Below, one piece after another: positions 1 through 21,467 of a DNA stretch of 64,000 nucleotides (position 1 is its first letter; the number at the start of each line of letters is the position of its first letter). Source of the DNA: an uncultured virus (IMG/VR IMGVR_UViG_3300007512_000010) (Duplodnaviria; Heunggongvirae; Uroviricota; Caudoviricetes); IMG/VR virus record IMGVR_UViG_3300007512_000010, positions 1-64,000 of that record. The stretch is one strand, 5' to 3'. Made by a program: the position numbers and the translations under genes. The notes under the pieces are model-generated. The model made no database searches, was not told the origin of the DNA, and worked only from the letters and a program-made list of their open reading frames with translations.

Positions 1-1
1 G

Positions 2-952
2 GAGGATTATCGAATTACAGCGGCTGAGGGCCTAGAGGATATTCAGGGAATTCGATTGGCTCGGGACGCCTCGGCAAACCGGTTTGATAGTAATCGTCAG
101 AGCATCCTTAGGGGAGCAAGAGAAGCTTCCGAGATGAGTGGGGGTAGCTGGCGTTATACGAATAGGCTTAAACAAGCTGCCGAGAGATACCACACTGGGC
201 GAGGATCATCAACACGCGCTGGCCGTGGCCGGGAAGGGCGGAGCCTGGAGTATAGCGAAGATTGGCATATCGCTGGTAGGCAGGATTTCATGGATACCAT
301 CCAAATCCGCCTGAGAGGATCAGCGCCCGACGCCGAACCCGAAGATAGACGAGCCGCTATTGATGCTGGTGGCATCATGGATATGGATGACTTCTCTAGG
401 CTGTCCGCAGAGTTGTTGGAAGAAGATGATGCGGGCCTTCGGGATCTTGGTCAGGTGGCTGCACAGGCTGGCCGTTACCGACGAGCCTTCCGTACACGGG
501 GAGGAATGGGTAAAGGACGAGATCAGGTAACAGTGGCTGAGGCACTAGGAATTCGATTTACTGGCTCCTCGGCTACTAACGACAGAGCTTTCCTTCGTAA
601 TGAAGACGGCGGCGTCATGTCTATGCAGTTGGAAGGCCAACTAAGGACAATGGCCCGAGATGCTTTACGGGCTACGTCACCAGATGGTCAAGAGGTCACC
701 AACTCTCAGATCGAAACCCGTATGGGTCAGATGATGAGCGCTATCCGAAGCGGACAGGATGATGGTTACGAGACCCTTACCAGACTTCTGTCTACTCAGG
801 GCGCACCGAGCAATCCCAATGCGAGTGCTAATGCGCCTGGGGGTGCGGGTAATACTAGCCAACTGAGTGCACAAAACGCAGCACTTGCTGGTGAGGTCCA
901 GACGTTGATCTCGACCATCCGCTCAATTAACACACAGACAAGTGGGGGCTAA
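2..952 (+). CDS. C-terminal part of a large protein truncated by the window edge; possibly tape-measure-like
   Basis: The frame is open from base 2 (EDYRITAAEGLEDIQGIRLARD...), so the listed start at 56 is probably internal. Helical A/G/R/S-rich composition. The tape-measure call is an inference from composition and context only. Confidence 0.4.
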   Translation, partial: EDYRITAAEGLEDIQGIRLARDASANRFDSNRQSILRGAREASEMSGGSWRYTNRLKQAAERYHTGRGSSTRAGRGREGRSLEYSEDWHIAGRQDFMDTIQIRLRGSAPDAEPEDRRAAIDAGGIMDMDDFSRLSAELLEEDDAGLRDLGQVAAQAGRYRRAFRTRGGMGKGRDQVTVAEALGIRFTGSSATNDRAFLRNEDGGVMSMQLEGQLRTMARDALRATSPDGQEVTNSQIETRMGQMMSAIRSGQDDGYETLTRLLSTQGAPSNPNASANAPGGAGNTSQLSAQNAALAGEVQTLISTIRSINTQTSGG

Positions 953-954
953 TA

Positions 955-1311
955 ATGTTTAACCCATTAAAGCTATCTCTATCTGGCATTGACGCCATTA
1001 GCAGCATTCTTCAGAGCGAGAAGGATAGGAATCCCTCTGCTCCAAAGGAAGCGTTTGAGAACCAAGAGTTTGAGGGAAACCCCCTTGTCGAGTTTTTAAG
1101 TCACGGTGAGGGGCTTAATGAGATTTCGACAACGTACTCTTTTGGGGATGGTACACACCACATACGAGTTCTAAATCTTGCTTCTCCTGATATTATGCTA
1201 GTACATCAGAGTCGTATGGTGGGCTTCTATAAGAAGCTTGGCTCTGGGCGAGAGATTCGCGAAGTACAGCGGGATGTTAAGAACGTACTCGTGAAAGACG
1301 TGCGGTATTAG
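955..1311 (+). CDS. Hypothetical protein (118 aa)
   Basis: ATG directly after the upstream stop; fills the gap in the gene run. Confidence 0.7.
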   Translation: MFNPLKLSLSGIDAISSILQSEKDRNPSAPKEAFENQEFEGNPLVEFLSHGEGLNEISTTYSFGDGTHHIRVLNLASPDIMLVHQSRMVGFYKKLGSGREIREVQRDVKNVLVKDVRY

Positions 1312-1320
1312 GAACTAATA

Positions 1321-3375
1321 ATGGCCACTAAGGAAGAAATACACCGCTTAGCGGACAAGAAGGGCATCCCTTGGGATAATGACCCTAAGTTCAAGAAGTG
1401 GTCTAAGGGCCTTACGGGCACAGCCTGCTTGGACAAGATGTCTCCGAAGCAGCTTGCTAGAGTAAAGAAAGCGTTATTAGCGGCTAGAGCTAGTAAAGAG
1501 AAAACGGCACTAGCTAACGAGACTAAAGAACATGCACTCATGGGTGCTGGCGCTACTGGTGCACTAACCGGGGCCAAGAAATTCCAGTTAGGAGATTTCA
1601 CTGGTAGGTATACGCTTTATCATGGGACTGACCCCCAAACTGCCGCAAGAATTAGAGCGGAAGGGCTCCTCCCGAAAGGGGCTACTGGCCAAGGGGGCAG
1701 TATCAGCAACATCCTCGACCCTGCTACACAGGGTAGGGGGAAGAACTTAGTCTTCGCCACCAATAGGAGCGGTGGGCTACTTAGCTCTATACACCCACTG
1801 GGGGGAGTAGGAACCGCTCGAACCTATGCGGCGCAGCAAACGGTAATAAAGAAGTATCTCGACAGAGGATTGTCCCCCAAAGAGGCCGTACAAAAGGCAA
1901 GAATAGAACTAGGGATGAACCCTGGGCAGTTCCATACCAAAGGTAAAGTAGTAAAAATGCGTGTCCCTCTAGAGGAGATGCGTGCTGCTGGTAGGATAGT
2001 CCCGAACCCCGAGGTGGTTGATCGGATAGCCGACACCAAACTCATGCATGGCGAGGGATCGGCTCTTCATCGGCTCAATAGGTTCTTCTCTGAGCGGATG
2101 ATGGGTGAGAAAGGCGGTACGTACGCCATTAAAGGCGGAGTTCCAACTAAGTACATCCCTGGGTCTGACGACTATAGTCGAGTCACACTAAAAGAGGTTG
2201 CTAAACATATAAGAGCAAACCCAAGGCTTGTTGCTAGGGGTTCTGGTTCTATCGCTTTGGGTCTCGGTGGGACTGCTTTGCTAGCGTCTCAACTAAAAAA
2301 GCGGTCGGACAGAATCAAAGCGAGCAAGGAGAAGACAGCCGGTAGGCTTGCCGAGGTAATTAAAGCCCTAAAAGGGATGCCTAAGGATGAAGCGGCTGTC
2401 ACCGCGCTTGGCGTGGTCGCCCCAGCGCCAGGAACAAGCGTTGTTTTCCCGGCAGTGTACAAAGGTGTTAAAAGCACAATCAAACATGGCCCCCCTGGAT
2501 CTTCACAGCGCGGGATGCACGACGCTATGAAGAAGTTGTTGGCGCAAAAGCAGGCAGACAAGGATTGGGCAGACCTCCTAACTTGGAAGCTAGGTTCTGT
2601 TACCAAGATGGCAGCGACGGAGAGGGTGCCTATTCCTCGGTTTGAGATAGATATGGACGCTATCATGGCACCCCTGCGGGATAGTCTAAATGAGATCACT
2701 ACATCCGCAAAGCCCAAGAAAGCACCTAAGGTAGATCTAAAAGACATCACTGTTGAGCCTAAGTATCGTGGGCGTACCTGGGCTGGGGGCACAGTCATTT
2801 GGAGGATGAAGCACAAGGGCAAAGAGATTGGCAGCATCACTACAAAAGGCAATCAAGTAAGTTTATCTGGTCTTGATGAGGCTTACCGAGGCCAAGGGCT
2901 TGGTCGGCATATGTACAAAGAAGTCTTACGGAATATGCCGGAAGGCAAGATGTACAGCGACACAGTCTTGTCTGACCAAGGAAGGCGTGCGTGGCGGTCT
3001 CTTCATAATAAGGGGGACGCTAAGGTTCTTCGACAACGACAGTGGCTCGGTGTATCGCGTAGTCCGACGAACTTTGGAGGTAGCCCCCAGCACTTTAATA
3101 CCGGGCTTCGGGCTCACTATCGGGCACGCATCCCCAAGGACCAGATGGCGAAACTTGTCGCCGGATCTCCTGAAGCGATTATTCGTTCAAAGATAGCGCC
3201 AACGCTTGGGGAGAACGTTAGACGGATTGGTACAAAATCGCTTATAGGCGCTCTTGCCGCCTCTTATCTAGGTGCTGCTGGTTACGGTATGTACAACGAG
3301 CTTAAACCTAAAAAGAAGCGTAAGACAAAGCAAGCCTCTGGCATGTGGGCTGTTCTGACTGAGGGGGCCGCATGA
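1321..3375 (+). CDS. Basic multi-module protein with an ADP-ribosyltransferase-like domain and a GNAT acetyltransferase domain, separated by K-x-A motifs
   Basis: LYHGT...IRAEGLLP...LVFATN...ARTYA...VVKMRVP (about 1609-2200) fits an ART/PARP-like fold. EIGSI...LDEAYRGQGLGRHMY...SDTVLSDQGRRAW (about 2800-3010) contains the GNAT acetyl-CoA motif RGxGxG. ASKEKTA occurs twice, plus TKMAA and TKQAS. Confidence 0.7.
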   Translation: MATKEEIHRLADKKGIPWDNDPKFKKWSKGLTGTACLDKMSPKQLARVKKALLAARASKEKTALANETKEHALMGAGATGALTGAKKFQLGDFTGRYTLYHGTDPQTAARIRAEGLLPKGATGQGGSISNILDPATQGRGKNLVFATNRSGGLLSSIHPLGGVGTARTYAAQQTVIKKYLDRGLSPKEAVQKARIELGMNPGQFHTKGKVVKMRVPLEEMRAAGRIVPNPEVVDRIADTKLMHGEGSALHRLNRFFSERMMGEKGGTYAIKGGVPTKYIPGSDDYSRVTLKEVAKHIRANPRLVARGSGSIALGLGGTALLASQLKKRSDRIKASKEKTAGRLAEVIKALKGMPKDEAAVTALGVVAPAPGTSVVFPAVYKGVKSTIKHGPPGSSQRGMHDAMKKLLAQKQADKDWADLLTWKLGSVTKMAATERVPIPRFEIDMDAIMAPLRDSLNEITTSAKPKKAPKVDLKDITVEPKYRGRTWAGGTVIWRMKHKGKEIGSITTKGNQVSLSGLDEAYRGQGLGRHMYKEVLRNMPEGKMYSDTVLSDQGRRAWRSLHNKGDAKVLRQRQWLGVSRSPTNFGGSPQHFNTGLRAHYRARIPKDQMAKLVAGSPEAIIRSKIAPTLGENVRRIGTKSLIGALAASYLGAAGYGMYNELKPKKKRKTKQASGMWAVLTEGAA

Positions 3376-5846
3376 GCAAATCCGATAATAACGATAGTGC
3401 TGCTCCCGCATTAGTGGGTGGAGTAGCGGGCGTACTTCCCTTTGCTGGGGCAGTTGGTGACCGGAATGTAATGAGCCCCGCACAGGGTCCACAGGTTAAA
3501 TCGCTTAAGCAGTTGGCTAGTAAGGCCAAGCCCGGTGATGTTCTTATGGCTGGAGCGCCAGGAACAACTGTCCGAGGAGCCTTCAATAAGGCGTTTATCA
3601 ATTTAGGTATTGGTCGACCTGCTGCGTATCACCCCACTATTGTGGAAGGCATTTCTCCTGATGGTCGCCTTACTATTTTGGAGCACGGGCCAAAGGGTGG
3701 TTGGCAACGCAAAACATTATCGGCTAATAGCGCTTCAAGCCTAAGCCTACTTAGACCAAAAGATGGAACGCGTGCCTTAGGCACCGTCCAAACTGCCCAA
3801 CGATACGTCGCTGCCAATGAAAGCTTGGGCAAAGCCCTGGCAGCTAGAGGGTTGTCACCTGAGCAGGTGACTGCTGTACAAAAGAAGGCGTACTCTCACC
3901 GGTTAAATCCGGCCATCGGCTTTAGAGAACTCTTTTTACCTAAGGTTAGTGAGACAGGGCTAAAGGTTCGTGCCCAGCGCAAGGGGGCTGATCAGGCTCT
4001 TCTACACTTTGAGCAAAACATCGACAACATTGCCGATGAGCTTGCTGGCAAGGTGAAGGCTGGAAAGGGCATTAGTGTTTCTGACCTCAAGTGCCTTGGT
4101 GGTGTGTGCACAACGACAGCCGCTAAAGCAGGAGTTCCGGTAAGAGGTGGAACAACACTGTCTCATGCTTCCCCACGGGATATCCTTGCTTCCGGCCAAC
4201 TTACGAATATTGGTCATAAGCCTGCGGAGGGCTCAACTAGATTGTCCCGCAGGATTTTCCACAAGGCACTTCAGCATGGACCCACTGCTGTTCGTGCTGG
4301 CGCTGGGATTGGCTTGGGAACTTTGGCTTACAAAGGGGCCAAGAAGCTTTGGGGTAATGACGCTAGTAAAACAGCGGCTGTTGCTGCCGCCGCTCCTGCT
4401 GCCGCTGGCGCAAGCTACGGTGGTGAGCTTACTGCTGCGGGTGTTGGTGCTGGCTTGATAGCCCCAAGGGCCACGCAACCATTATTTAGTAAAGAAGTAA
4501 CTCGGTACACACCGGGTAAGCCCATTAATATTTATTACACTGATCCTGCACGGGGTAGAGGACACTTCCAACAAGCGCAGAATATTGCCAAGGCACTAGA
4601 GGCTAGAGGGGTTCCCTACAATCTAGTCAATGTAGAAGAGAAGTTCACGTCGCCAGCAGCAAGAAAGAAGCTGATTGAAACCTACGATAAAGTACGAAGG
4701 GGCGAGATATCTCAAGGTGAGTGGAAGCGGGCTTGGACCCAGTTCTATGCGAAAGAGGTAGATAAGGGTGCTTTGAAAGCACACGCTAAAGCGGGTGGTG
4801 GAACCATCCTGACCAATCCCGGACTTGCTCCTTGGATGCGTGGCGCAGGACCGGCGAACGTTGTTATCTCTGATCCTAGTAAGGCGATGATGGAAACGCC
4901 TTTAGGGACCTCTTGGTCTAGAGCGCAAGACATTAAGTATGTGCCCAAGGGGGTTGAAGGCTATACCGGACAACATGTTCGAAGAGTAGCTAACGTCCCA
5001 GTTGACCCAGGCATGTTCCAGAGAGGAACTACGCCCGTCTTTGGTGCGGGAACAGCAAACGTTACTGTCTCTGGTGGTGGCACAGGAACAGATGTAGTCA
5101 AGCAGGTTCAGCAACTACTTCAGTCAAAGACACAAACCATTGGTGGTAAGCCAATCACCATCCACGCGTTATCGGCAAATATGGCCAAACGCGACCCTAA
5201 ACAGTTTGCTGCGCTGCAGGATCTTGCCAGACAAAATCCGGGCAGGATCAAGGTGCATGGGCTGTTGGAGCCAGAGCAGATCAGGAATGTATTCCAACAG
5301 GCCGACATGAATGTTCTTAGGCCTCATGGAACTATGGGCACTGAGGCTATGCTGGCTAAGAAGCCTATGATTCTTACTGCGCGTGGCGGTGTTGGACCCG
5401 GAGGAAATCTCGCGTGGGCACCGGGCATGAACCTTTCCAATGCACGGAGGTTTCAGCAGTTAACTGATGCACCTATGGCGGGACTTGGTGGGCAAACGAC
5501 ACAAGCGAACCTTGGTCAAGTGTTTGATGAGAGCCTTGGAAAGACAGACGAGCTTGCTAAAGGTGTTCAACGAGGAGCTTCTGGAGTAAAAGACACTGCT
5601 ACTGGAATCGTTGATGATATTATTAAAAACCCTAGAGTAAAGGCTCGTGGAAGGATACCCTTCTCCAAGCCGGTCGCTATGGCTGGTGGTGGTTTGATAG
5701 CCGCTGCTGGAGCTAAAGCGCTGTGGGATAGACATCGAGCTAAAACTGCTGAGGTTTATGAGCTAGATGCTGATATGACTGTCGAAGGCTACCAGAGAGG
5801 GCTGAATAAGGCCTCTGCTGTTATGTCCCTTATTAGTGAGGAATAA
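3372..5846 (+). CDS. Basic multi-module protein with a permuted NlpC/P60 (YiiX/YebB-like) domain and a GT-B glycosyltransferase (GT28/MurG/MGDG-synthase-like) domain
   Basis: KPGDVLM...YHPTIV...VCTT...SPRDIL has the His-before-Cys order of permuted papain-like enzymes. INIYY..GRGHFQQAQNIAKAL, VTVSGGGTG and DMNVLRPHGTMGTEAMLAKKPMIL are GT28-type motifs. The modules are separated by SKTAA, and the second ends at AKTAE. Confidence 0.7.
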   Translation: MSKSDNNDSAAPALVGGVAGVLPFAGAVGDRNVMSPAQGPQVKSLKQLASKAKPGDVLMAGAPGTTVRGAFNKAFINLGIGRPAAYHPTIVEGISPDGRLTILEHGPKGGWQRKTLSANSASSLSLLRPKDGTRALGTVQTAQRYVAANESLGKALAARGLSPEQVTAVQKKAYSHRLNPAIGFRELFLPKVSETGLKVRAQRKGADQALLHFEQNIDNIADELAGKVKAGKGISVSDLKCLGGVCTTTAAKAGVPVRGGTTLSHASPRDILASGQLTNIGHKPAEGSTRLSRRIFHKALQHGPTAVRAGAGIGLGTLAYKGAKKLWGNDASKTAAVAAAAPAAAGASYGGELTAAGVGAGLIAPRATQPLFSKEVTRYTPGKPINIYYTDPARGRGHFQQAQNIAKALEARGVPYNLVNVEEKFTSPAARKKLIETYDKVRRGEISQGEWKRAWTQFYAKEVDKGALKAHAKAGGGTILTNPGLAPWMRGAGPANVVISDPSKAMMETPLGTSWSRAQDIKYVPKGVEGYTGQHVRRVANVPVDPGMFQRGTTPVFGAGTANVTVSGGGTGTDVVKQVQQLLQSKTQTIGGKPITIHALSANMAKRDPKQFAALQDLARQNPGRIKVHGLLEPEQIRNVFQQADMNVLRPHGTMGTEAMLAKKPMILTARGGVGPGGNLAWAPGMNLSNARRFQQLTDAPMAGLGGQTTQANLGQVFDESLGKTDELAKGVQRGASGVKDTATGIVDDIIKNPRVKARGRIPFSKPVAMAGGGLIAAAGAKALWDRHRAKTAEVYELDADMTVEGYQRGLNKASAVMSLISEE

Positions 5847-5847
5847 G

Positions 5848-6363
5848 ATGAACCCTTTAGAGAAATACACGGCCAAGAAGAAGCTTATCGAGAAGCTTGC
5901 CGACATAATGGTTGGTCCACGGAATGACAAGGGTGCTGTAACGACCGCTGGCGGAATATTTATCGGCGTTCCCGGAGACAAGAAGGACCCAGGATACGGA
6001 GCAAAAACCCGGAAAGCGGCTGAGAGAATCTCCGAGCTTATAAAAGAGAAGGGTTCGATCCAACGTGCTAGGCAGGCATACGCCAAAGAGAACCCGTCCC
6101 ACTACATTACAGCGGCGTTTAAGCGCGAGAAGAAGCCCTCGTCAGGGTTCCTTGGGTACAAGAAGTTATTCGGCGGGAAGAAATATAAGTCTTCGGTAAG
6201 CTCGTACGCTGACCGGTCCAAAAAACCAAGGATTTTCGTACGGGCTGGCCAAAGTGCGGGCTACCAGCAAAGATCTCTCTACAGAGAGGTGGCCCGAGGT
6301 TTAAGAGACAACGAACTAAATCAACCCCACGTGGCTAAAAAAGACAGGGTGGTATACGTATGA
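5848..6363 (+). CDS. Basic protein with conserved MxxLEKY leader
   Basis: ATG at 5848 gives MNPLEKYTAKKKLIEKLA, matching the N-termini of the 7013 and 7327 products. K/R-rich. Confidence 0.75.
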   Translation: MNPLEKYTAKKKLIEKLADIMVGPRNDKGAVTTAGGIFIGVPGDKKDPGYGAKTRKAAERISELIKEKGSIQRARQAYAKENPSHYITAAFKREKKPSSGFLGYKKLFGGKKYKSSVSSYADRSKKPRIFVRAGQSAGYQQRSLYREVARGLRDNELNQPHVAKKDRVVYV

Positions 6364-7016
6364 GTACCCCAGAACAATACAACGAACACCAGCAAAAGCT
6401 GGGTCTATTTACAAGTAGTCAGGTTGCACATCTTGTCCGGTTTTGGCAGGAAAACCACAATCTCGAAGCAGATGGGTACTGTGGCCCCAAAACACAGGGT
6501 TCTCTTTTAGACGCTATGTACGACACTACCGAAGAGCCAAGTAGTCTTGGTGCTCTGGCGCTCAATGTAGCGATTGGAGAGATCGGTAATGGCGAAGAAG
6601 GAGGAAATAACTCTGGACAGCATGTGGCAAGATATCACGGAATCGATGATGACGGCGATGATGATGACGATGGTGCTTGGTGCGCTAGCTTTGTTAGTTA
6701 TTGTTGCCGCACTGCGGCTTCTCGGCTCGATATTGATCTTCCCTTTCGCTCTTCCCGTGGTGCTAAGTCGTTGTATAAGAAGATAGGCGAGGCAGGCAGC
6801 TACACAACCAATCCGTTACCGGGTGATGTTGTGTGTTGGGATCGGGGCAAACCGGGTTCTTGGCAAGGCCACATAGGCTTCGTCGAAAAGGTAGAAAACG
6901 GTATTCTATACACTATAGAGGGTAATACAGGTCGTTTCCCTTCAACTGTACATCGAATTAAACATGACTTAGATAGGGAAGACCGCCTTATCGGATTTGC
7001 GAGGATGCCAGCATGA
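6360..7016 (+). CDS. Endolysin-like peptidoglycan hydrolase: N-terminal PG-binding domain plus CHAP domain
   Basis: VRFWQENHNLEADGYCGPKT resembles PG_binding_1. AWCASFVSYC, PLPGDVVCW, GHIGFVE and TIEGNT are CHAP catalytic Cys/His motifs. Confidence 0.88.
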   Translation: MSTPEQYNEHQQKLGLFTSSQVAHLVRFWQENHNLEADGYCGPKTQGSLLDAMYDTTEEPSSLGALALNVAIGEIGNGEEGGNNSGQHVARYHGIDDDGDDDDDGAWCASFVSYCCRTAASRLDIDLPFRSSRGAKSLYKKIGEAGSYTTNPLPGDVVCWDRGKPGSWQGHIGFVEKVENGILYTIEGNTGRFPSTVHRIKHDLDREDRLIGFARMPA

Positions 7017-7327
7017 TGACTGCCTTAGAAAAGTATGCCGCTAAGCGAAAGCTTGCCGCCTTGCTCAAGGAAGCGAAGATCCCTGGCTGGGCTAAGCAGT
7101 TCGCAGTCCAAGATGGAAACATTATTAACATTATCAAATGGCCGAAGTCCAAGAGGTTACAGGCTAAGCTGAAGATGCTTCAGCGTGGTAGGGCTAACGC
7201 ACCCCGACACAGGAAAGGCGGATTTAACCCCTCCTTTGCAGGAAAGCCGGGGTCTGGAAAACCGGAGGGCGGTTGGCCAAAGGGTAGCATGATGGACGAA
7301 TGGCGAAGACAGGCGGGTAGACAATAA
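7013..7327 (+). CDS. Small basic protein with conserved MxxLEKY leader
   Basis: (M)MTALEKYAAKRKLAALLKEA followed by a cationic body; ATGA overlap with the endolysin stop. Confidence 0.75.
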   Translation: MMTALEKYAAKRKLAALLKEAKIPGWAKQFAVQDGNIINIIKWPKSKRLQAKLKMLQRGRANAPRHRKGGFNPSFAGKPGSGKPEGGWPKGSMMDEWRRQAGRQ

Positions 7328-7614
7328 TGAACGCTCTAGAAAAATACGCCGCTAAGAAACACTTAGCGAAGGAACTCCAAAAGGTTGCCTTCCTCGGTGC
7401 TGTCATGAAGGGTGTGAAGGCCGCACGCCATGGCCTGACCCGCGCTCTTCCTCTCACCTCCCCTCTTTCTCGGGGCGCAACAAAGGCAACCGCTGCTGCA
7501 GCCGGGGCGACCGGTGGCGCTGCTGCTGTTGGCGCTGCTGGAAAGGCCGGTGACGCCGTGCTTCGTATGAAACGACGCTGGCAACCTGCGAAGCCACCTG
7601 CGGTGGGGAAGTAG
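7327..7614 (+). CDS. Small basic Ala/Gly-rich protein with conserved MxxLEKY leader
   Basis: MNALEKYAAKKHLAKELQKVA followed by FLGAVMKGVKAARHG...; TAATG overlap. Confidence 0.75.
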   Translation: MNALEKYAAKKHLAKELQKVAFLGAVMKGVKAARHGLTRALPLTSPLSRGATKATAAAAGATGGAAAVGAAGKAGDAVLRMKRRWQPAKPPAVGK

Positions 7615-7656
7615 TGATTAGGTATTTTATTGATTGGTGTACGAACTTAACAAATA

Positions 7657-7671
7657 ATCACGTAACGTGAT
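7657..7671. promoter_or_regulatory. Intergenic palindrome, candidate operator
   Basis: ATCACGT-A-ACGTGAT in the AT-rich gap upstream of the AGGAGG ribosome-binding site of the 7695 ORF. Confidence 0.4.
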
Positions 7672-7694
7672 ATACAACAAAACAGGAGGACAAT

Positions 7695-7805
7695 ATGTCT
7701 GAATTTATGTGGGGCGCAGCTACAGGAGCGGTACTTTCTCCCTTTGCTTGGGAAGGTATCAAGTGGTGTTGGCGCAAGTACACGGCTTTACTCGCTAAGA
7801 AGTAA
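7695..7805 (+). CDS. Small 36-aa putative membrane-associated protein (not in ORF track)
   Basis: MSEFMWGAATGAVLSPFAWEGIKWCWRKYTALLAKK*, preceded by a strong AGGAGG Shine-Dalgarno. Confidence 0.65.
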   Translation: MSEFMWGAATGAVLSPFAWEGIKWCWRKYTALLAKK

Positions 7806-7832
7806 AGACCCTTTTTATTAGGAGATAATACT

Positions 7833-8021
7833 ATGGCTATCAAAGATGCAGTTTCGGCACTAGCGGAAGAGCTAGACAACGCTTTAAGCGATTGTGAAAA
7901 ATTCGAGCGAGGCAACGATGCGGCTGGCCGTCGTGTCCGTTCTACCTTGATGAGCATTTCAAAGGCTTGTAAAGAGTTACGCACGGTTATTCAAGAAGAA
8001 CGAAACGCCCGCAAGGGTTGA
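7833..8021 (+). CDS. Hc1-like (histone H1-like) small nucleoid-associated protein
   Basis: KFERGNDAAGRRVRSTLMSISKACKELR resembles the Hc1-family K..KGNKAAG.R.R...L.....KE.R signature; GGAGA SD. Confidence 0.7.
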   Translation: MAIKDAVSALAEELDNALSDCEKFERGNDAAGRRVRSTLMSISKACKELRTVIQEERNARKG

Positions 8022-8040
8022 TTTATTGTAGGGTGTCGAA

Positions 8041-11000
8041 ATGGCTAATGTTCAGTTTTCGTGGCAGAACGTCTCCGAAGGCGTTGCTGATATTTACTAT
8101 GTCAGCGACACCGAGATGGGGTCGTTCTTATTAAAAGTACAGAACGTCACCCTTACGTCTGCTGCCGGTGGAGCAGTCTACGATAATATCGAAGACTCTG
8201 GTGTCGATGTACAAAGCACCCTTATCAGGGTTATGGACAACTCTGCACAGGGGCAGACCATTCCGAAAACGGATGGGGCCAGTCAACACTTTATACGACT
8301 CAATTTTACGCCTGATAGCGGTGCTACAGACATTTGCTTTATGGGTGATTCGTCGTCTGCGGCTACCCCTGGAGGTGAGTCCAGCTTCACTATCTCCTAC
8401 GGCCAAAGTGGAGGGGAGTTTTGTGCGTCTTGGGAGGGTGCGAACGCTAACCCTGACCCCACTGCAATCATCACTGCGCCTACGGCGGGTGCTAGCATTT
8501 CGTCTGGAAGCCCCTTAGGCTTCGATGGTTCAAGCTCCCATGACATGAATGGGGCCACAACGAATCTGAGCTATGCTTGGACTTTCGGTGATGGTGGGAC
8601 GTCAGCCGCTGCTACTGGAAACCACACCTATACATCTGCTGGTGACTACACCATATCCCTGACTGTTACTGACCTTGAGTTAAGCACAACAAACACTGCC
8701 CAAGTAAACATAACTGTTGCCGCTCTAGATTACAGCATCGCCGGTAGTGTTACTCCCAACGACAGTAAGGCTACCTTTTCGATCACTATTGGGGCTGATG
8801 TAGACCATGCCCATATTAACGTTTACAACAGCGATGGTGAGCATTTAGGCAATTACCATGTCGGGCAGACAGGGGAGTGGTCGGCAAACCTCTCCTATGA
8901 GGTTGAGGTAGGTTACGGAACCTTTACCGCGCAGCTTATCCCCACCAACGGTGAGCATCAGGTACTGGGCGACGACATTGAGAATCTTAGCTGGGACCAG
9001 GGCTCAGCCCCTGACGACGTAGCCCCGGTAATCACCCTTACCCACGGTGGTGAAATTTGGTACCAGAAGATTGGGACCGCTTTCAGTGAGCCTGGGTTTA
9101 CCGCAACGGATAACGTAGACGGCGATATTACCGGCGACGTTACGGTTACTGGTTGGGCAGATGGGTCGTCCCCGGCTGGAGATTACTCTGTAAAGTACAA
9201 CGTATCTGATGCCGCTGGTAATGCTGCTACACAGCAAATCCGTAACCTTACGGTCCACTCAGAACCCTCTGTGGATCAAGTAAACACCCAAATCCATGCT
9301 AGCCACATAAGGATTATTGAGGATTGGGATCCGGGAAGTGTCAACGCATACACCATCGTACTTAAAAATAGCGATGGCGGTGAAGTCGCTACTGAGAACA
9401 ACGCAACCGTAGAAAACGGCAACAATATCGATCTGGCTGATAAGCCGATTGGTAACTACACCGTAGACGTCATCCTCAATGTGTCTGCGGAACACCCACA
9501 GCACGACACGGCAGTCCTTCAGTGGACTACCGAGATTATGTGGGCAGGCGTTGTGGACTACACGGTCAGTGTGTCGCATGTCCAAAGCGGTGACGCGACC
9601 ACATTTACGTTTGTCAGAGCTAATGACAATGCCGACTACTCCGGTGGTGATGGTGTAAACCACGTTCACTGGATTTTGTCCGACCAAGAAGCGCAGGGCC
9701 ACGGTCACGAGGCCGGTGTCACGATGATTTACTTCGCACAGTACGCTTTAAGCGCCAGTGTAGAAGTAACCAGTGGGTACGGTGACCATAGGCTCACGTA
9801 TTACGCTGTCGATGGCTCTCACAACATGCTGGGCGATCAGCTTCAGTATGACTATGACGCTGGGGTAGAGAACCAACCCCCAGTTCTTTCACCTATTGGT
9901 GGTTTTCCCAATTACATCCTGAATTGGCATGCGTCAGACAGCTACGTAGACCCAGGGGCTACCGCTGTAGACGGCGAAGGCCATGACATTAGCAACTTCG
10001 TCGCTGTTAGTGGAGACATTCCTACGCTGGATAGGGCGGGTACATACGATGTTATTTACACCGTTTGGGACCTAGACCACAGCCCGTGGGGTACTACTTC
10101 AACTGATGAAAATTGGGCTAATCGCTTATTAAGCGATACTACGACTAGAACTGTACATGTTTCACTGTCCAAGCCAACGGTTTCTGCCGCAGCGGATGCA
10201 AACGACCCACAGGGTAAGATTAACGTTTCATATGTGCATGGTGAGTCTTGGGATGATGGCGATCATGCAGACGGTAATGGTGAGCCGAGCCTAGCGGACA
10301 TCTACCGTAAGAAGAACGTAACATGGCCCTATGACGCAGCTAATGATCCAGGGTGGGACTTAGTTGCTTCTGCGAACGCAGGGTCTTCGGGTACTGAAGG
10401 GAATCCCGTTGTATGGGTGGATACGGATGTAAATCCGGGTTGGACGCTCACCTATATGGTGAAGTCCCGGAGTGACGACTATCAGACATCTGAAGAATCA
10501 GATCCGAGCACACCTGTACAGATCCCGCCTGATCAAGCCCCCGTGTTTGAGTTCACAGCGGGAACGAGCGAAACCCTCGACAAGCAGGCAAATGGTACGT
10601 GGGCTACTCCTTCTGATCCGCCGTGGTCGGCTACTGACCCGGAGGGGTACACCAACTTTACGCTACACACCTCGTACTCAGGACCAGACACAGGGAACCC
10701 TAATTACCCATCAGAGACTGGGCCTGTATTTGGCACACACTCGTTCACGTACTGGGTAACGGAGGACACCAACGGGACCGCTTCTAATCAAGAGGTGTAC
10801 ACACTGTCCCTTATCGATCTTCAACTAGAGGTGGCCACTGGCCCCACAGTCGATGATTCGAGCCTCCCAGCATCAGTAGATTTCACTATCAACGTCGGTC
10901 AAAGCATTGATGGCTGGTTGATGACAATTTACGCCGAAGATGGCGTAACAGAAGTAGATTCGATTGGCGGGACCAATTGGCTGCAGGGGATCGCCCTGGC

Positions 11001-14000
11001 CTTCGATATTACCTCGCCAGGAGAGTACAGTTACATACTCACTGGTACCGGGAATAACTCAAGCGTAGCTGGTGGTACAGGCACGTTCACCGTTAACGCT
11101 GCCGCACTTGAGTTTCACAGCGTTGCGGTTACATCCGACGCCCTTCCTTGGTCGATGGCTAATGTTCGCTGGGGACTGCATGATGGGACCAGTTTGCCCT
11201 CTGACATGCGGGTACAGATTGAGCGAAAGACTGGGTTAGACGGTAATTGGACGGCGATTACCAGTAACCAGATGCCCGATGCAGGGGGTTTAAATGGTAG
11301 TACTGGAACTGGCTACTATGACGAGGGATTAACTCCAGCAACTACGTACTATTATCGATTAATATTCGTAGACACCGAAGGGACACAGAGCAGTTACTCT
11401 GTAGAGGTTGAATACGCCACTATTGCAATCCCCAACCTTGCAACAGCAGACGTAAATACCCGTGGAAAGGTACACCCAGAGTTAACTATTACTGGGGCTG
11501 AAGTTCACGATTGGTACTGGACAACAGAGGCTGTTGCTTCACCAGAACTACGGACCAAGGCCGATTGGGACGCAGACGCTAATGCTCACCATGTTTCACA
11601 GGGTACATGGGGAGTCGTTATGGACCACCTAGGCGCGGGCGCAGGCTCGTCTACAGGTGATCATGCCCCTGGCGCGTATACAGTAATTATTGCTGGCTTT
11701 TGGCATGATGGAACGCCACTAACCCCGAACATGGACCCAGGGAACAATACGGTTTTAGTTGTTCCGTACAATGTGTTTAGGGGCGGAGCCGCTGTTACCT
11801 CTGAGTTTACTTCAAATTTTGAGGTTGAGATTACAGTTACAGAGCCTAACGACTCCTTTGATTGGAGCGGGGTACGCTGGTCTACCCAATCTCCTGTTGG
11901 GGCCGGTCTATCTGATTGGCCAGGAACGTCATACTCATCATGGGGATCGGCATCTTCCGATGGGGCTATCGTAGCCCCAGACCCAGGTGGAACGGGCTCG
12001 GTTACTTATTATGTTGTTCCTGTAAGTGACGAGAACGATGAACGGATCGACGCTGTCTACACCACAACTATCTATAGGTGGTCTGGTCTTAATGGGGTTA
12101 ACGTTACCGTGTCTGGTAATAACCTTAGCGATAACAATGTAACGGCCACCGTTTCTCCAAGCCCAGGGTACGGGCCGCAATGGAGGTACTCCACCGAGTC
12201 GGCTCCTCCAGCAAACAGTTCTCTCAGTAATTGGGGGACACCGGTTACTGACGGAAACACAGTTACGTTTACCAGAAGAAGTCCTGGCGGGGCTACGTTA
12301 TGGGCGCACGCATGTTTCCCAGACGGAACTCCAATTGGCTCGACTATGTCGACCTCTTTTACAGTTTCACTTGCGCCCTACACAGGTTTGACGGACTTAA
12401 CATTTGCTATTGGTGGTGATGACGGAGGCGTAACCCTACAGGCACACGGGTACTTCCCCCAATGGCGGTACTACATTGGGGTACTCCCGATATGGACTGA
12501 GTATGGCCAGCCTATGGCTGGTGATATGGGCGGAACTCCCGTAGACGAAGATCCGGCAATTACTCCTGATGGGCCACCTAGTGAGGTTGGTATTACTGTT
12601 GAGGTAAACAAGCGGGTTGTCATTATTGGTATTGCTACGGATGGCACGCAGCAACAACACATTGTAGGAAAGCCCCTGATTCGGGTCTTGCACATCGCAA
12701 ACAGGACTGCTGCTGAAGAGTGGAAGGTTCGAAATAACAATAGGGCTGATTTCGATGGAAACGATATCCCTGTAGCTGTCCTTAACTCTAAAGAGGTCGA
12801 TGAAAACGGACAACCCACCAAAACTGTCGTCAGCACTACGCTAGACAGGCTGTCTGACGCACTCCCGTGGTGGAGCAGTAAGGGGCTTACGTCAAACGAT
12901 ATGGGCAATTTCTTTGTCCCCGGTGCCAGCACCGAGACCCTCAGAACGGTTGAGAATCTAACTTGGTTGATGCCAAGGGTGTCTGGCCTTGCAGTGAGGC
13001 TCGACGATGACGGGAACGAGATGGGTGTCCGAAACAGGACATTTATTGATTGGGCTAATGATGACGGCGTTACTGCACACATGGGAGTAGACATCAGTGC
13101 TGAGTTGGCTAGTAATTTTGCTGGCGTGGATGACGCACTAGCTACCGTGATCAACGCAGATTTTGGTACGACAATCACCACTATGAAGGACGTCGTAACC
13201 GCTACGGCTGCGATTGACTTGACTGGTAGCTCTACTGGTACAGAAAAATGGCCTGACCGCTTCGTAAAGGAGCGCGTCAAACAACTCAGATACGTCGGGG
13301 CTCTCAATAAGGATACTTACGATGGTCTTCTCTATGGAGCACGCGTGCTCAAACCCAGTACTGATGGGATTAATGCGGACGGGACTGTAGGCGCTGACTT
13401 TACAATCCCTTGGAAGCGTGCCGATATCAGCGAGTGGTACCCAGAGGCTTCCGCCACCATAACGGCGGGTAACCATACTCTTGGTAACGCTAGGGATTTG
13501 GGTGGAAGGATTACCGGCAAGGACGCCTACGAAAAAGGGTATATCTACCCGAAGTTACGTCACGACGGGTATGTAGACCAAGACAACTTCCACAAAAGAG
13601 CCCCGAAGTTTCCCGTAACGAACTTTGTGCGCCCCGACACAGGAATGAACAGAACCCCACCACGGACACCCCAGCAGGGTAATCGTGTGCTGGATATGCT
13701 TAATGATAGAGCCTCTGGCAAGTTCGGGTTTGATACACCAAAGACACCGTCTGAGTTTCTTTCTGACAACGTTCCGGCTGATGCTACCGCTCTTGCTTTC
13801 TTAACTGGCCCAACGCTTATTGTGGACTACACGGGCAGTGGTGACATTATTGAGAAAGTCTCCGACCCAAAAATGACTTTGTTCATTCGCTGGTCGACCA
13901 AGACAGACGATATGGTTCCTTTAGAGATCCTGGCCCGTTACTTGGAATACGGGAACGCTGTTACGGAAGAAACCCTGCAGGCCATCTATGATCTAGAGGT

Positions 14001-14103
14001 TACAGAGGACGTCACCGTACAGGGTACCGGTAGGAATCGTACCGAGTGGAAAAACACTATTACTGATTTTGCCGCGATTATCGGCGTAAATCTAACTACC
14101 TAG
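8041..14103 (+). CDS. Giant (2020 aa) acidic Ig-like/adhesin-type protein with PKD, DUF5011/HYR-like and FN3-like domains; probable virion surface protein
   Basis: PKD: PTAIIT...FDGSSSHD...YAWTFGDG...HTYTSAGDYTISLTVTD. DUF5011-like: APVITL...EPGFTATDNVDGDITGDV...YNVSDAAGNAA, with a second copy at YVDPGATAVDGEGHDIS. FN3-like: YYDEGLTPATTYYYRL. No signal peptide evident. Confidence 0.7.
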   Translation: MANVQFSWQNVSEGVADIYYVSDTEMGSFLLKVQNVTLTSAAGGAVYDNIEDSGVDVQSTLIRVMDNSAQGQTIPKTDGASQHFIRLNFTPDSGATDICFMGDSSSAATPGGESSFTISYGQSGGEFCASWEGANANPDPTAIITAPTAGASISSGSPLGFDGSSSHDMNGATTNLSYAWTFGDGGTSAAATGNHTYTSAGDYTISLTVTDLELSTTNTAQVNITVAALDYSIAGSVTPNDSKATFSITIGADVDHAHINVYNSDGEHLGNYHVGQTGEWSANLSYEVEVGYGTFTAQLIPTNGEHQVLGDDIENLSWDQGSAPDDVAPVITLTHGGEIWYQKIGTAFSEPGFTATDNVDGDITGDVTVTGWADGSSPAGDYSVKYNVSDAAGNAATQQIRNLTVHSEPSVDQVNTQIHASHIRIIEDWDPGSVNAYTIVLKNSDGGEVATENNATVENGNNIDLADKPIGNYTVDVILNVSAEHPQHDTAVLQWTTEIMWAGVVDYTVSVSHVQSGDATTFTFVRANDNADYSGGDGVNHVHWILSDQEAQGHGHEAGVTMIYFAQYALSASVEVTSGYGDHRLTYYAVDGSHNMLGDQLQYDYDAGVENQPPVLSPIGGFPNYILNWHASDSYVDPGATAVDGEGHDISNFVAVSGDIPTLDRAGTYDVIYTVWDLDHSPWGTTSTDENWANRLLSDTTTRTVHVSLSKPTVSAAADANDPQGKINVSYVHGESWDDGDHADGNGEPSLADIYRKKNVTWPYDAANDPGWDLVASANAGSSGTEGNPVVWVDTDVNPGWTLTYMVKSRSDDYQTSEESDPSTPVQIPPDQAPVFEFTAGTSETLDKQANGTWATPSDPPWSATDPEGYTNFTLHTSYSGPDTGNPNYPSETGPVFGTHSFTYWVTEDTNGTASNQEVYTLSLIDLQLEVATGPTVDDSSLPASVDFTINVGQSIDGWLMTIYAEDGVTEVDSIGGTNWLQGIALAFDITSPGEYSYILTGTGNNSSVAGGTGTFTVNAAALEFHSVAVTSDALPWSMANVRWGLHDGTSLPSDMRVQIERKTGLDGNWTAITSNQMPDAGGLNGSTGTGYYDEGLTPATTYYYRLIFVDTEGTQSSYSVEVEYATIAIPNLATADVNTRGKVHPELTITGAEVHDWYWTTEAVASPELRTKADWDADANAHHVSQGTWGVVMDHLGAGAGSSTGDHAPGAYTVIIAGFWHDGTPLTPNMDPGNNTVLVVPYNVFRGGAAVTSEFTSNFEVEITVTEPNDSFDWSGVRWSTQSPVGAGLSDWPGTSYSSWGSASSDGAIVAPDPGGTGSVTYYVVPVSDENDERIDAVYTTTIYRWSGLNGVNVTVSGNNLSDNNVTATVSPSPGYGPQWRYSTESAPPANSSLSNWGTPVTDGNTVTFTRRSPGGATLWAHACFPDGTPIGSTMSTSFTVSLAPYTGLTDLTFAIGGDDGGVTLQAHGYFPQWRYYIGVLPIWTEYGQPMAGDMGGTPVDEDPAITPDGPPSEVGITVEVNKRVVIIGIATDGTQQQHIVGKPLIRVLHIANRTAAEEWKVRNNNRADFDGNDIPVAVLNSKEVDENGQPTKTVVSTTLDRLSDALPWWSSKGLTSNDMGNFFVPGASTETLRTVENLTWLMPRVSGLAVRLDDDGNEMGVRNRTFIDWANDDGVTAHMGVDISAELASNFAGVDDALATVINADFGTTITTMKDVVTATAAIDLTGSSTGTEKWPDRFVKERVKQLRYVGALNKDTYDGLLYGARVLKPSTDGINADGTVGADFTIPWKRADISEWYPEASATITAGNHTLGNARDLGGRITGKDAYEKGYIYPKLRHDGYVDQDNFHKRAPKFPVTNFVRPDTGMNRTPPRTPQQGNRVLDMLNDRASGKFGFDTPKTPSEFLSDNVPADATALAFLTGPTLIVDYTGSGDIIEKVSDPKMTLFIRWSTKTDDMVPLEILARYLEYGNAVTEETLQAIYDLEVTEDVTVQGTGRNRTEWKNTITDFAAIIGVNLTT

Positions 14104-20609: not shown

Positions 20610-21452
20610 ATGCGTCAGTTAGAGAAAACAGCCGTTAAACGGGGTCTTAGTACCTCGCTTGGGGCAAGGATTATTGACATTAACGGAGGCCCTCTGGAGA
20701 AAGAGGCGGCGAATGCTGTCGTGGAGGCCCTAAAGGGAACCTTCAGAGCAGCCCTAAAAGAGGGCAAAAAGACCGTCGCTGTTATTAAGGGAAAGAACGT
20801 CGGCTCTGCCCAAAAGAACCTCTCAAAGTCGCAGAAGAAGTTTAAGGCTCATGAGACCAAGCGGGTTGCTGATTCCAAGAAGACCTCTTTGAAGGAAAAG
20901 GTCTTCGGCAAGAGCAAGGCCCGAGAAGCTGACGAGGCGGCGAGCAAGCAGCGAACTAAGGATCTTATTGGTAAGATCAAGTCCAAGGGCGACAAGATTG
21001 ACGTCGAGAAAGCCCGAACTAAGAAGTACAGACGCGTTGCTGGCGCTGGCGTAGGTGTTACTGGCTTGGGTGCCATCGGTTTGGCCGCTAAGGGCGGCAA
21101 ATCCAGCCAAGAAGATAATGCGCTCGCTAAGGCGGCTAGCGGTCGTTTGGCTGCTTGGCGAGAAGGTGCTGAGCAGTTTGCTAAGCGCGTTGTCGGCAGC
21201 AACCAGAAGGGTGCCAGAGAGGCACTAGAGACCGCTAAGTCAAAACGCCCTGTACCCAAAGCCAGAAAGAATAAAGCTGAGTTGGCGAAGGCTGAAAAGC
21301 GGCTTGCGAGCTACGACAAGAGGAGCGTAACGCCCAGAGAAGAGGCGCTCGCTGCTGAGGTGGCTAAGACGCGTAAAGCTCGGCTACAGACTGCTGTCGG
21401 TACGACTGGATTAGCTGCCCTTGGTCTCGGTGCGAAGAAACTTAGTGACTAA
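20610..21452 (+). CDS. Lys/Ala-rich K-x-A family protein with two similar modules
   Basis: Leader MRQLEKTAVKRGL, then LEKEAA and AKAAS. Each module ends in a Gly-rich hydrophobic segment (AGAGVGVTGLGAIGLAAK; AVGTTGLAALGLGAKK). GGAGG SD. Confidence 0.75.
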   Translation: MRQLEKTAVKRGLSTSLGARIIDINGGPLEKEAANAVVEALKGTFRAALKEGKKTVAVIKGKNVGSAQKNLSKSQKKFKAHETKRVADSKKTSLKEKVFGKSKAREADEAASKQRTKDLIGKIKSKGDKIDVEKARTKKYRRVAGAGVGVTGLGAIGLAAKGGKSSQEDNALAKAASGRLAAWREGAEQFAKRVVGSNQKGAREALETAKSKRPVPKARKNKAELAKAEKRLASYDKRSVTPREEALAAEVAKTRKARLQTAVGTTGLAALGLGAKKLSD

Positions 21453-21467
21453 GAAGCGCGTATAATT

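Follow-up and report, generated by a model that had tools for sequence, protein, structure and literature searches.

Why would a phage encode chains of unrelated enzyme-like domains directly behind its head genes, and what becomes of those chains? The question is raised by two adjacent open reading frames (ORFs), ORF1 (1321-3375, 684 aa) and ORF2 (3372-5846, 824 aa), on the + strand of the stretch of DNA analysed here (the window), which is the first 64 kb of one linear contig of 118,970 bp from an uncultured virus (IMG/VR virus record IMGVR_UViG_3300007512_000010; CheckV completeness 67). Both ORFs are built of modules, and the short motif K-x-A stands at the module boundaries. Judging from this pattern, we consider it fairly likely that ORF1 and ORF2 encode modular capsid cargo, probably cut by the head protease and delivered with the DNA.

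Read across both ORFs, the order is a 63-residue leader, an ADP-ribosyltransferase (ART)-like module, a small linker module, a GNAT module, a papain-like module, a GT-B module and a conserved tail, all on the + strand. A first-pass annotation of this DNA had described two effector polyproteins with four enzyme domains. Every segment that it quoted was found in the numbered translation, and four enzyme-like modules are present, but the full layout comprises five modules plus the leader and the tail. Both of its ORFs exist as well, but they correspond to the halves of one polyprotein of relatives. The leader (1321..1509, ORF1 1-63), which AlphaFold models as three helices with a local confidence (pLDDT) of 87-97, is N-terminal in 9 other proteins at 49-73% identity with 13 invariant columns, and it heads the related polyproteins P0004-P0008. 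The tail (5751..5846, ORF2 794-824 plus stop) carries Y-Q-R-G-L-x-[KR]-A, which also ends P0005, P0006, P0007 and P0008 and occurs once only in this genome. Because leader and tail are the two ends of single proteins in P0005-P0008, ORF1 and ORF2 appear to be one polyprotein split in two. ORF1 closes with 12 residues and a stop (3337..3375) that overlaps the ORF2 start as ATGA, and a purine-rich GAGGGGG run lies just 5' of that start. P0004 has the same end as ORF1 (79% identity), which rules out a sequencing error as the origin of the split.

The motif K-x-A occurs 10 times in ORF1 and 8 times in ORF2 (18 sites in total), and only four of these sites are K-T-A. The four close the leader (ORF1 61-63, nucleotides [nt] 1501-1509), the ART-like module (1510..2340, ORF1 64-340; site at 338-340, nt 2332-2340), the papain-like module (3372..4376, ORF2 1-335; site at 333-335, nt 4368-4376) and the GT-B module (4377..5750, ORF2 336-793; site at 791-793, nt 5742-5750). 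As an independent map of the module boundaries, both ORFs were compared by BLASTP with seven relatives that a sequence search had turned up; the homology blocks end at 63-68, 336-340 and 429-434 in ORF1 and at 329-333 and 792-794 in ORF2. All four K-T-A sites lie within 5 residues of these breakpoints. A further breakpoint coincides with the K-M-A (ORF1 429-431) that ends the 91-residue linker module (2341..2613, ORF1 341-431), and K-Q-A (ORF1 670-672, nt 3328-3336) closes the GNAT block (2614..3336, ORF1 432-672).

The seven relatives have seven distinct module orders or contents, and all of their junctions carry K-x-A. P0005 consists of leader, ART-like module, HExxH module, linker, papain-like module and tail; P0006 of leader, linker, papain-like module, GNAT and tail; P0007 of leader, papain-like module, GNAT and tail; and P0008 of leader, HExxH module, papain-like module, GNAT and tail. 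P0004 combines the leader with a Gly-zipper module (Pfam Gly-zipper_YMGG, E 7e-5), the linker and GNAT; P0002 joins GT-B, GNAT, one unassigned module and InPase (PF18823, E 2e-36); and P0003 is GT-B alone. This architecture is mosaic, and the search for homologues with shuffled module order that the first-pass annotation had proposed was thus positive: order is not fixed among the seven. The sites are kept at every junction in relatives of 30-55% identity, and also in the more distant L009. The linker moves as a unit, matching P0005 597-695 and P0006 60-163, where it precedes the papain-like module and not GNAT. The GNAT domain had been noted as lacking a leading hydrophobic segment; none was seen on it because ORF1 341-431 is a separate module with a hydrophobic run of its own (ORF1 358-380, nt 2392-2460).

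The ART-like module extends well beyond these polyproteins. A full HMMER scan with ORF1 returned 381 proteins at E <= 0.001, in which the module mostly stands alone (250-300 aa) and also turns up, at no fixed position, within chains of 640-1270 aa, for example at residues 19-296, 197-483, 389-691, 633-920 and 701-962. Its partners in such chains include InPase, DUF5661, DnaJ, SUKH, the permuted papain-like C92 and others, and the Pfam domains SET and KTSC are also present in relatives. Five IMG/VR relatives (L004-L008) lie on contigs of 89-181 kb, four of them 173-181 kb compared with 119 kb (about 67% complete) for the contig studied here. In these five, the leader is a separate gene of 145-177 aa; L005 likewise has a separate tagged gene for the ART-like module, and L004 one for the HExxH module. 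In a protein from another metagenome (P0027), the GNAT cassette is fused ahead of a homologue of the 656-aa late-region protein of our contig (G000 100713-102683; L003 713-2683), and the alignment to that protein (E 2e-54) begins exactly at its N-terminal F-E-K-V-A-A. A metagenome scan with the papain-like alignment added three short contigs that have the same cassette grammar and carry no head genes. Two further chains are unusual in content: P0106 (1617 aa) holds a leader, a LigD 3'-phosphoesterase, a ligase OB domain and a papain-like module, and P0069 (1333 aa) carries an intein (Hint and LAGLIDADG matches) inside a chain with InPase and a GNAT-like module.

The stand-alone proteins show where such junctions might come from. 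They share a layout of tag, Gly/Ala-rich run, enzyme core, second Gly-rich run with a conserved start, and basic end. An N-terminal tag ending in K-x-A within 40 residues was present in 50 of 147 Met-starting proteins (10.6 ± 3.1 in shuffled sequences), the commonest being M-N-K-Y-L-E-K-I-A; the small neighbours in this phage have L-E-K-Y-A. At the other end, the conserved start of the C-terminal flank, R-[FA..]-x-x-G-x-G, was found at 52 sites in 157 related proteins (3.8 ± 1.9 in shuffles), with the variants R-F-A-K-G-x-G in the ART-like family and R-A-G-x-G in the papain-like family. For 33 of the 52 the protein ends 25-62 residues further on (median 34). Of the 19 internal flanks that remain, 15 have a K-x-A between +20 and +55, whereas random windows drawn from the same proteins gave 4.7 ± 1.8 and not one of 1,000 trials reached 15; two of the four internal flanks that lack the motif look like chance pattern matches. 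By its sequence context, K-x-A stands exactly at the position expected for the end of a stand-alone module and the start of the next N-terminal tag. Fusion of tagged genes would produce K-x-A at such positions, and the site has since been kept. A pure composition effect was ruled out as the source of the K-x-A pattern by the comparisons with shuffles and with random windows in the same proteins.

The same motif marks the head proteins of this genome. The motif counts, made in the 88-ORF proteome of the whole contig, gave 9 sites for EK[TY]A (shuffles: 1.2 ± 1.0) and 33 for EK.A (11.6 ± 3.2). A 217-aa acidic, scaffold-like protein has five sites, three of them E-K-T-A; a 397-aa capsid-like protein has the motif at residues 24-27; a 561-aa homologue of head-maturation proteases (G000 112674-114359; phrog_18299, E 1.5e-12) has it at residues 430-433; and several late proteins carry one site near the N-terminus. 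Because it is enriched genome-wide and present in the capsid-like, scaffold-like and protease-like proteins, K-x-A is probably a head-protease site. This agrees, on indirect evidence that includes its place at the tag end of stand-alone modules, with the earlier suggestion that the motif is a processing signal. The scaffold-like gene adjoins the protease gene; these two genes and that of the capsid-like protein lie upstream of ORF1 across the contig end, as does the large terminase gene (phrog_675, E 5e-68). ORF1 and ORF2 are located directly behind this head module and ahead of a CHAP hydrolase, which is followed by tail and baseplate genes; such a position suits capsid cargo.

We then asked what the modules encode. 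Both ORFs were modelled whole with AlphaFold, and the models are mediocre (ORF1: mean pLDDT 64.2, pTM 0.31, 121 sequences; ORF2: mean pLDDT 57.1, pTM 0.35, 9 sequences). The chain combines at least two unrelated domains of catalytic or effector type, namely a GT-B fold, a weak GNAT match, and the ART-like and papain-like modules as separate homology units. The four folds named in the first-pass annotation fared unequally: GT-B held, GNAT received weak support, the ART-like assignment drew only convergent matches below threshold, and direct tests of the papain-like assignment came back blank. The model confirms a two-Rossmann-domain GT-B fold at ORF2 380-758 (nt 4509-5645), which includes G-R-G-H at 395-398; its nearest language-model neighbours are lipid-acting families of the GT28 type. 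The GNAT assignment, at about ORF1 470-600, is weakly supported. Its Pfam score of 18 bits is below the cut-off, which one relative passes, the CoA-loop motif R-G-Q-G-L-G is present (ORF1 523-528, nt 2887-2904), and the structure-search rows are weak.

The evidence that ORF1 64-340 is ART-like, of the H-Y-E clade that includes Tpt1- and PARP-like enzymes, is suggestive only. In an alignment of 41 sequences, G95, H101, G115 and E231 are invariant and R96, Y100 and A166 nearly so; the residues of interest are His101 (nt 1621-1623), Tyr169 and Glu231. Weak Pfam matches to PARP (13 of 41 members) and to Tpt1/KptA (11 of 41) all fall below the cut-off, with a best E of 0.003, and ORF1 itself has no PARP or Tpt1 Pfam match. 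The family profile matches Tpt1/KptA among PDB sequences at E 0.0013 over only 25 positions around LYHGT. The model has pLDDT <50 over ORF1 77-164, too poor for a fold search, and Foldseek with the ORF1 model gave no row at E <= 0.001, the model being poor over the ART-like part.

ORF2 1-335 is a candidate permuted papain-like (NlpC/P60-clan, C92/LRAT-like) module, with the putative domain at about 40-290. Its homologues comprise P0005-P0008, P0012 and P0106 (E 1e-30 to 1e-45), together with L009 and L011. His87 (nt 3630-3632) and Cys246 (nt 4107-4109) are invariant in 7 sequences, with the His upstream of the Cys. In the ORF2 model, where local pLDDT is mixed, strands at 87-129 come before a helix (245-252) with C246 at its start. 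The C-terminal, His-bearing half of the CHAP profile matches this region in two relatives (E 0.0018 and 0.084) out of six that were scanned. The module in ORF2 has no Pfam match at E <= 10, the PF05708 profile had no match on the genome, the alignment profile yielded only one unrelated PDB row at E 0.3, and hhalign of the alignment against the CHAP protein of the window gave a probability of 0.3. Language-model neighbours scored only 0.81-0.82, a lead only, and fold searches with ORF2 were filled by GT-B domain matches.

Neither ORF matched any of 50,697 phage records by tblastn or was assigned to a PHROG family, and IMG/VR scans queried with ORF1, ORF2 and P0007 returned zero relatives. PDB sequence searches with both ORFs found nothing relevant, and a word-based homologue search with ORF2 for shorter proteins found none. 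Because all relatives of the terminase among cultured phages are less than 28% identical by tblastn, there is no cultured model for this lineage.

Most modules are bracketed by flanking segments of 12-23 uncharged residues that are Gly/Ala-rich and weakly hydrophobic. On the N-terminal side these are the Gly/Ala run of the ART-like module (ORF1 72-85, nt 1534-1575), a run in the papain-like module (ORF2 9-29, nt 3396-3458) and the Ala/Gly runs of GT-B (ORF2 334-365, nt 4371-4466). The C-terminal runs lie at ORF1 307-323 (nt 2239-2289; basic stretch 326-336) in the ART-like module, ORF1 640-658 (nt 3238-3294; basic stretch 662-670) in GNAT, ORF2 308-320 (nt 4293-4331; R-A-G-A-G-I-G...) in the papain-like module and ORF2 767-781 (nt 5670-5714) in GT-B. 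The classical transmembrane threshold is a Kyte-Doolittle value of 1.6 over 19 residues. Only 2 of 16 windows listed reach it, ORF2 10-28 (1.75) and ORF1 358-376 (1.60), the latter being the linker window and the maximum for ORF1; most flanks score 0.6-1.3 and the C-terminal ones 0.64-1.28. The hydrophobic flanks of the first-pass annotation are therefore present and conserved, but they are short and only weakly hydrophobic and are not callable as transmembrane helices from sequence alone. Most have pLDDT <50 and lie outside the matched folds in both AlphaFold models (the GT-B match covers ORF2 380-758 only). The models do not pack the flanks into a fold, an outcome that the first-pass annotation had named as refuting, with the exception of the GNAT C-flank, which is drawn as helices with a block-mean pLDDT of 64-70. 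Gly-rich flanks accompany ART-like, GNAT, papain-like, GT-B and HExxH modules. The InPase and LigD-phosphoesterase/ligase modules of sister polyproteins have K-x-A sites but no Gly-rich flanks, and because of this the flanks lean towards a module-specific job and not a general loading tag.

How might such a chain be used? In the scheme that we favor, the precursor would be built into the prohead together with the head proteins, and the head-maturation protease would cut it at K-x-A sites, as in the scaffold-like and capsid-like proteins. Each cassette would start just after a site ending in K-x-A, here mostly [S/E]-K-T-A, and would typically run from a weakly hydrophobic Gly/Ala-rich segment through the enzyme domain to a Gly-zipper-like segment with the conserved start and a basic stretch. 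The enzymes thus separated would be retained in the head until infection, when they would exit together with the DNA. Cleavage, packaging and ejection of the ORF1 and ORF2 modules are all inferred from sequence.

Several observations count against this scheme. A matrix built from 45 N-terminal tags of other genomes finds 17 sites in this genome, compared with 2.5 ± 1.5 in shuffles, but none of the junction sites of ORF1 and ORF2, which have no hydrophobic residue at -5; these sites may be of a different class, or uncut. AlphaFold draws one continuous helix (ORF1 318-351, pLDDT 73-83) across the first junction, at 338-340. K-x-A is short and lies in Lys/Ala-rich sequence, with a genome-wide count of 238 compared with 194 ± 15. 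The protease assignment is a PHROG match only (the protein has no Pfam match at E <= 0.01 and no PDB sequence match at E <= 1), the capsid assignment is weak (phrog_2522, E 1.4e-4), and three of the four enzyme assignments are below family thresholds. Both the continuous helix and the deviation of the junction sites from the tag consensus would suit uncleaved polyvalent proteins, that is, chains packaged or acting whole, in which the K-x-A stretches are flexible or helical linkers or relic tags of gene fusion. Some polyvalent proteins, such as the N4 virion RNA polymerase, are packaged unprocessed according to the main text of PMC5512222. We nevertheless regard this explanation as unlikely: relics should decay, whereas the sites persist at all junctions in the 30-55% identity relatives and in L009, and the E-K-T-A form recurs in the scaffold-like protein.

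The proteins might instead not be capsid cargo at all but late products that go into the membrane of the infected cell that makes them, for envelope remodelling, phage exclusion or as a lysis aid, with K-x-A serving another role. The Gly/Ala-rich hydrophobic segments followed by basic stretches, the lipid-type neighbours of GT-B and the CHAP hydrolase next door would fit such a use. We find it quite improbable, since the tag ends are shared with the capsid-like, scaffold-like and protease-like proteins, the GNAT cassette is joined to a late-region protein at that protein's tag, and ordinary co-translational insertion would need more strongly hydrophobic flanks. Sister polyproteins also carry LigD-phosphoesterase and ligase domains, as well as InPase, which is typical of virion-delivered polyvalent proteins in the main text of PMC5512222. 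Processing by something other than the head protease, either a zincin-type peptidase module or a host protease, seems more improbable still. P0005 and P0008 hold an HExxH module within the polyprotein, such peptidases have been proposed as a processing device (PMC5512222, main text), and a contig that is about 67% complete leaves room for a trans-acting copy. Yet ORF1/ORF2, P0004, P0006 and P0007 keep their sites without this module, and a motif shared with the scaffold-like and capsid-like proteins speaks for the head protease. Neither ORF1 nor ORF2 contains an HExxH peptidase, so zincin self-processing in cis is unavailable here; the 118,970-bp contig has no homologue of the relatives' HExxH module, and its only two HExxH matches are both in giant tail-region proteins.

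The function of the flanks is a separate matter. That the enzymes are brought to the host membrane after ejection by the flanks they retain is a tentative proposal; it gains some support from the flank-free InPase and ligase modules, and the lipid-acting neighbours of GT-B bear on it too. Combined with processing, it yields a doubtful but coherent picture in which the head-protease cut is an arming step and each cassette is a self-contained deliverable unit whose freed ends insert post-translationally into the host inner membrane. Cutting at K-x-A would free the N-terminal Gly/Ala-rich segment and leave the C-terminal Gly-zipper and basic stretch, and insertion would resemble that of the proteolytically primed fusion peptides of enveloped viruses. 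The ART-like, GNAT, lipid-type GT-B and LRAT-like acyl/amidase enzymes, all cofactor-dependent, would be held at the cytoplasmic face beside the entry site; units would be swapped freely among genes and polyproteins, and soluble InPase and LigD/ligase would travel without membrane ends. Against a membrane step, the flanks are short and mostly below the hydropathy threshold, an enzyme between two membrane-crossing segments is an awkward topology, and the conserved C-flank sequence would fit a specific protein contact equally well. The Gly-rich and basic segments could accordingly be retention or assembly elements inside the head that contact the shell, the scaffold, each other or DNA. This is possible, if somewhat unlikely: the C-flank start is common to unrelated modules, including those of ORF2 and of L009/L011, other head-region proteins of the genome end in similar Gly-rich runs, and the basic stretches could bind DNA, but the cargo-type InPase and LigD/ligase modules go without flanks, and a general loading tag should be less selective.

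Phage heads are known to carry processed proteins. In T4, the internal proteins IPI-III and Alt bear a capsid targeting sequence that is cut by the prohead protease gp21, and Alt is a packaged, injected ADP-ribosyltransferase. The T4 protease cuts after Glu in L/I-x-E, and the head-protease motif of SPN3US and phiKZ likewise places the cut after Glu. As in the cargo proposed here, the T4 proteins have a short N-terminal tag that ends in a head-protease motif also found in scaffold and capsid proteins. T4 cargo differs in being encoded by single-domain genes, in lacking hydrophobic flanks and in being cut after Glu, whereas ORF1 and ORF2 are multi-enzyme chains with internal K-x-A sites. In function, the closest analogues are Alt and the capsid targeting sequence of T4. 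The Dar antirestriction proteins of P1 and the MuF-linked polymorphic toxins of temperate phages are also head-packaged effectors with swappable enzymatic parts; they differ in using the carriers DarA/Hdf and MuF and in having no repeated cassette grammar. No sequence relation to these systems was found, the tblastn searches with ORF1 and ORF2 against phage records being blank. Processing in P1 is mentioned in the main text of PMC5512222.

In the giant phage SPN3US, 14 head-protease sites have been mapped in nine substrates; 13 of these cuts trim N-terminal propeptides from a set of eight head proteins, and the last one takes the C-terminal propeptide off the protease itself (PMC10052503, in the portion used here). 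Like the phage studied here, SPN3US (protease gp245) and phiKZ (gp175) have many internal head proteins that are cut at a short motif, some of them entering enzymes, but in that portion of PMC10052503 no mapped SPN3US cut separates several enzymes. The closest description in print is that of phage and plasmid polyvalent proteins by Iyer, Burroughs, Anand, de Souza and Aravind (2017; PMC5512222), the main text of which describes chains of 2-15 domains that are thought to be delivered on invasion and proposes that a zincin (MPTase) peptidase cuts them into units. ORF1 and ORF2 resemble these proteins in placing unrelated enzyme domains in one phage chain among late or virion genes, in mosaic order, and in the proposed delivery with DNA and processing into single units. 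The InPase domain (PF18823) of the sister proteins is named there among phage-type polyvalent-protein domains and is listed with GNAT, SET and KTSC. In contrast to the built-in zincin proposed in that text, which does not demand one of all members, ORF1 and ORF2 have none in cis, their junctions carry a probable head-protease motif, and most of their modules have conserved Gly-rich flanks. The words 'transmembrane' and 'glycine' are absent from the main text of PMC5512222, 'prohead' occurs once, and the flank-plus-site cassette was not found there. The view of the first-pass annotation that it knew of no described system with this layout thus calls for a qualification, since multi-enzyme polyvalent proteins as such are already published. 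In the literature that we searched, neither a K-x-A head-protease rule nor flank-bracketed enzyme cassettes are described.

The surroundings of the locus contain further genes with tags of the same kind. Nearly every long ORF in the window lies on the + strand. Downstream of ORF2 are small basic proteins, the CHAP hydrolase, giant tail-region proteins and baseplate genes. A small basic protein of 175 aa (5836..6363, +) has an N-terminal tag that contains L-E-K-Y-T-A, and its tag family is common to small genes in L004-L008, which have many small tagged genes as are found beside ORF2. Two more, at 7013-7327 (104 aa) and 7327-7614 (95 aa), both +, have a near-identical N-terminal tag ending in L-E-K-Y-A, and the latter also has a Gly/Ala run and then a basic end. 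The matrix trained only on the tags of other genomes recovered both of them, with scores of 11.0, 13.2 and 14.5. Among the cargo genes, a 218-aa CHAP-domain hydrolase (6360-7016; Pfam E 1.5e-12, with a weak peptidoglycan-binding match) has no N-terminal tag and is conserved in L004. In positions 1-8100, promoter-like sites number 8 (5.9 ± 2.4 expected) and terminator-like sites 14 (7.7 ± 2.4 expected).

A sigma-factor-like gene (21468-22367; phrog_351, E 1.3e-13) sits between two proteins with cargo-like ends. The protein at 20610-21452 has a tag ending in L-E-K-T-A at its start and a Gly-rich run with K-K-L-S-D at its end, and the protein at 22364-23836 ends in a Gly-rich run; window positions 20610-23836 may be a second cargo cluster. 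Four giant ORFs occupy 8041-14103 (2020 aa), 33711-41552 (2613 aa), 41555-48232 (2225 aa) and 59234 onward (2883 aa). The N-terminus of the 2613-aa protein matches a baseplate wedge subunit (phrog_6, E 8e-14), and the other three have no family match at E <= 0.001. Outside the window, one 2077-aa gene (G000 92433-98666; L002 8433-14666) fuses RNA polymerase beta and beta-prime, with Rpb2_6 (E 1e-55) and Rpb1 domains 1, 2, 3 and 5 and strong matches to two PHROGs with no assigned function (E 1e-120 and 5e-85). A 406-aa protein of the head module (G000 110737-111957; L003 10737-11957) matches histone-H1-like Hc1 (PF07432, E 3.8e-9, above the cut-off) and has, at residues 47-50, a site of the tag type; a role in condensing DNA inside the head is possible.

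The proposed processing of ORF1 and ORF2 relates both to polyvalent proteins and to capsid-targeted, protease-processed internal proteins; its interest lies in a rule that is simple and can be tested, and in the breadth of the orphan family. If it is correct, this lineage of large uncultured phages would have a plug-and-play way of loading enzymes into capsids, in which a short signal serves as address and cutting site, the membrane-type ends are optional and the enzyme cores can be exchanged. The polyvalent-protein idea would gain a concrete, testable processing rule, unlike the cut-after-Glu rule of T4 and phiKZ. A wide orphan family would gain its first functional context, the ART-like module by itself having hundreds of metagenomic relatives; of 10 ART-like clusters looked up, none is named beyond 'hypothetical protein'. 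The cassette would also be a natural design for putting foreign proteins into phage heads. Finally, early membrane-proximal modification of the host, through ADP-ribosylation, acetylation, or glycosylation or deacylation of lipids or envelope precursors, would emerge as a phage strategy.

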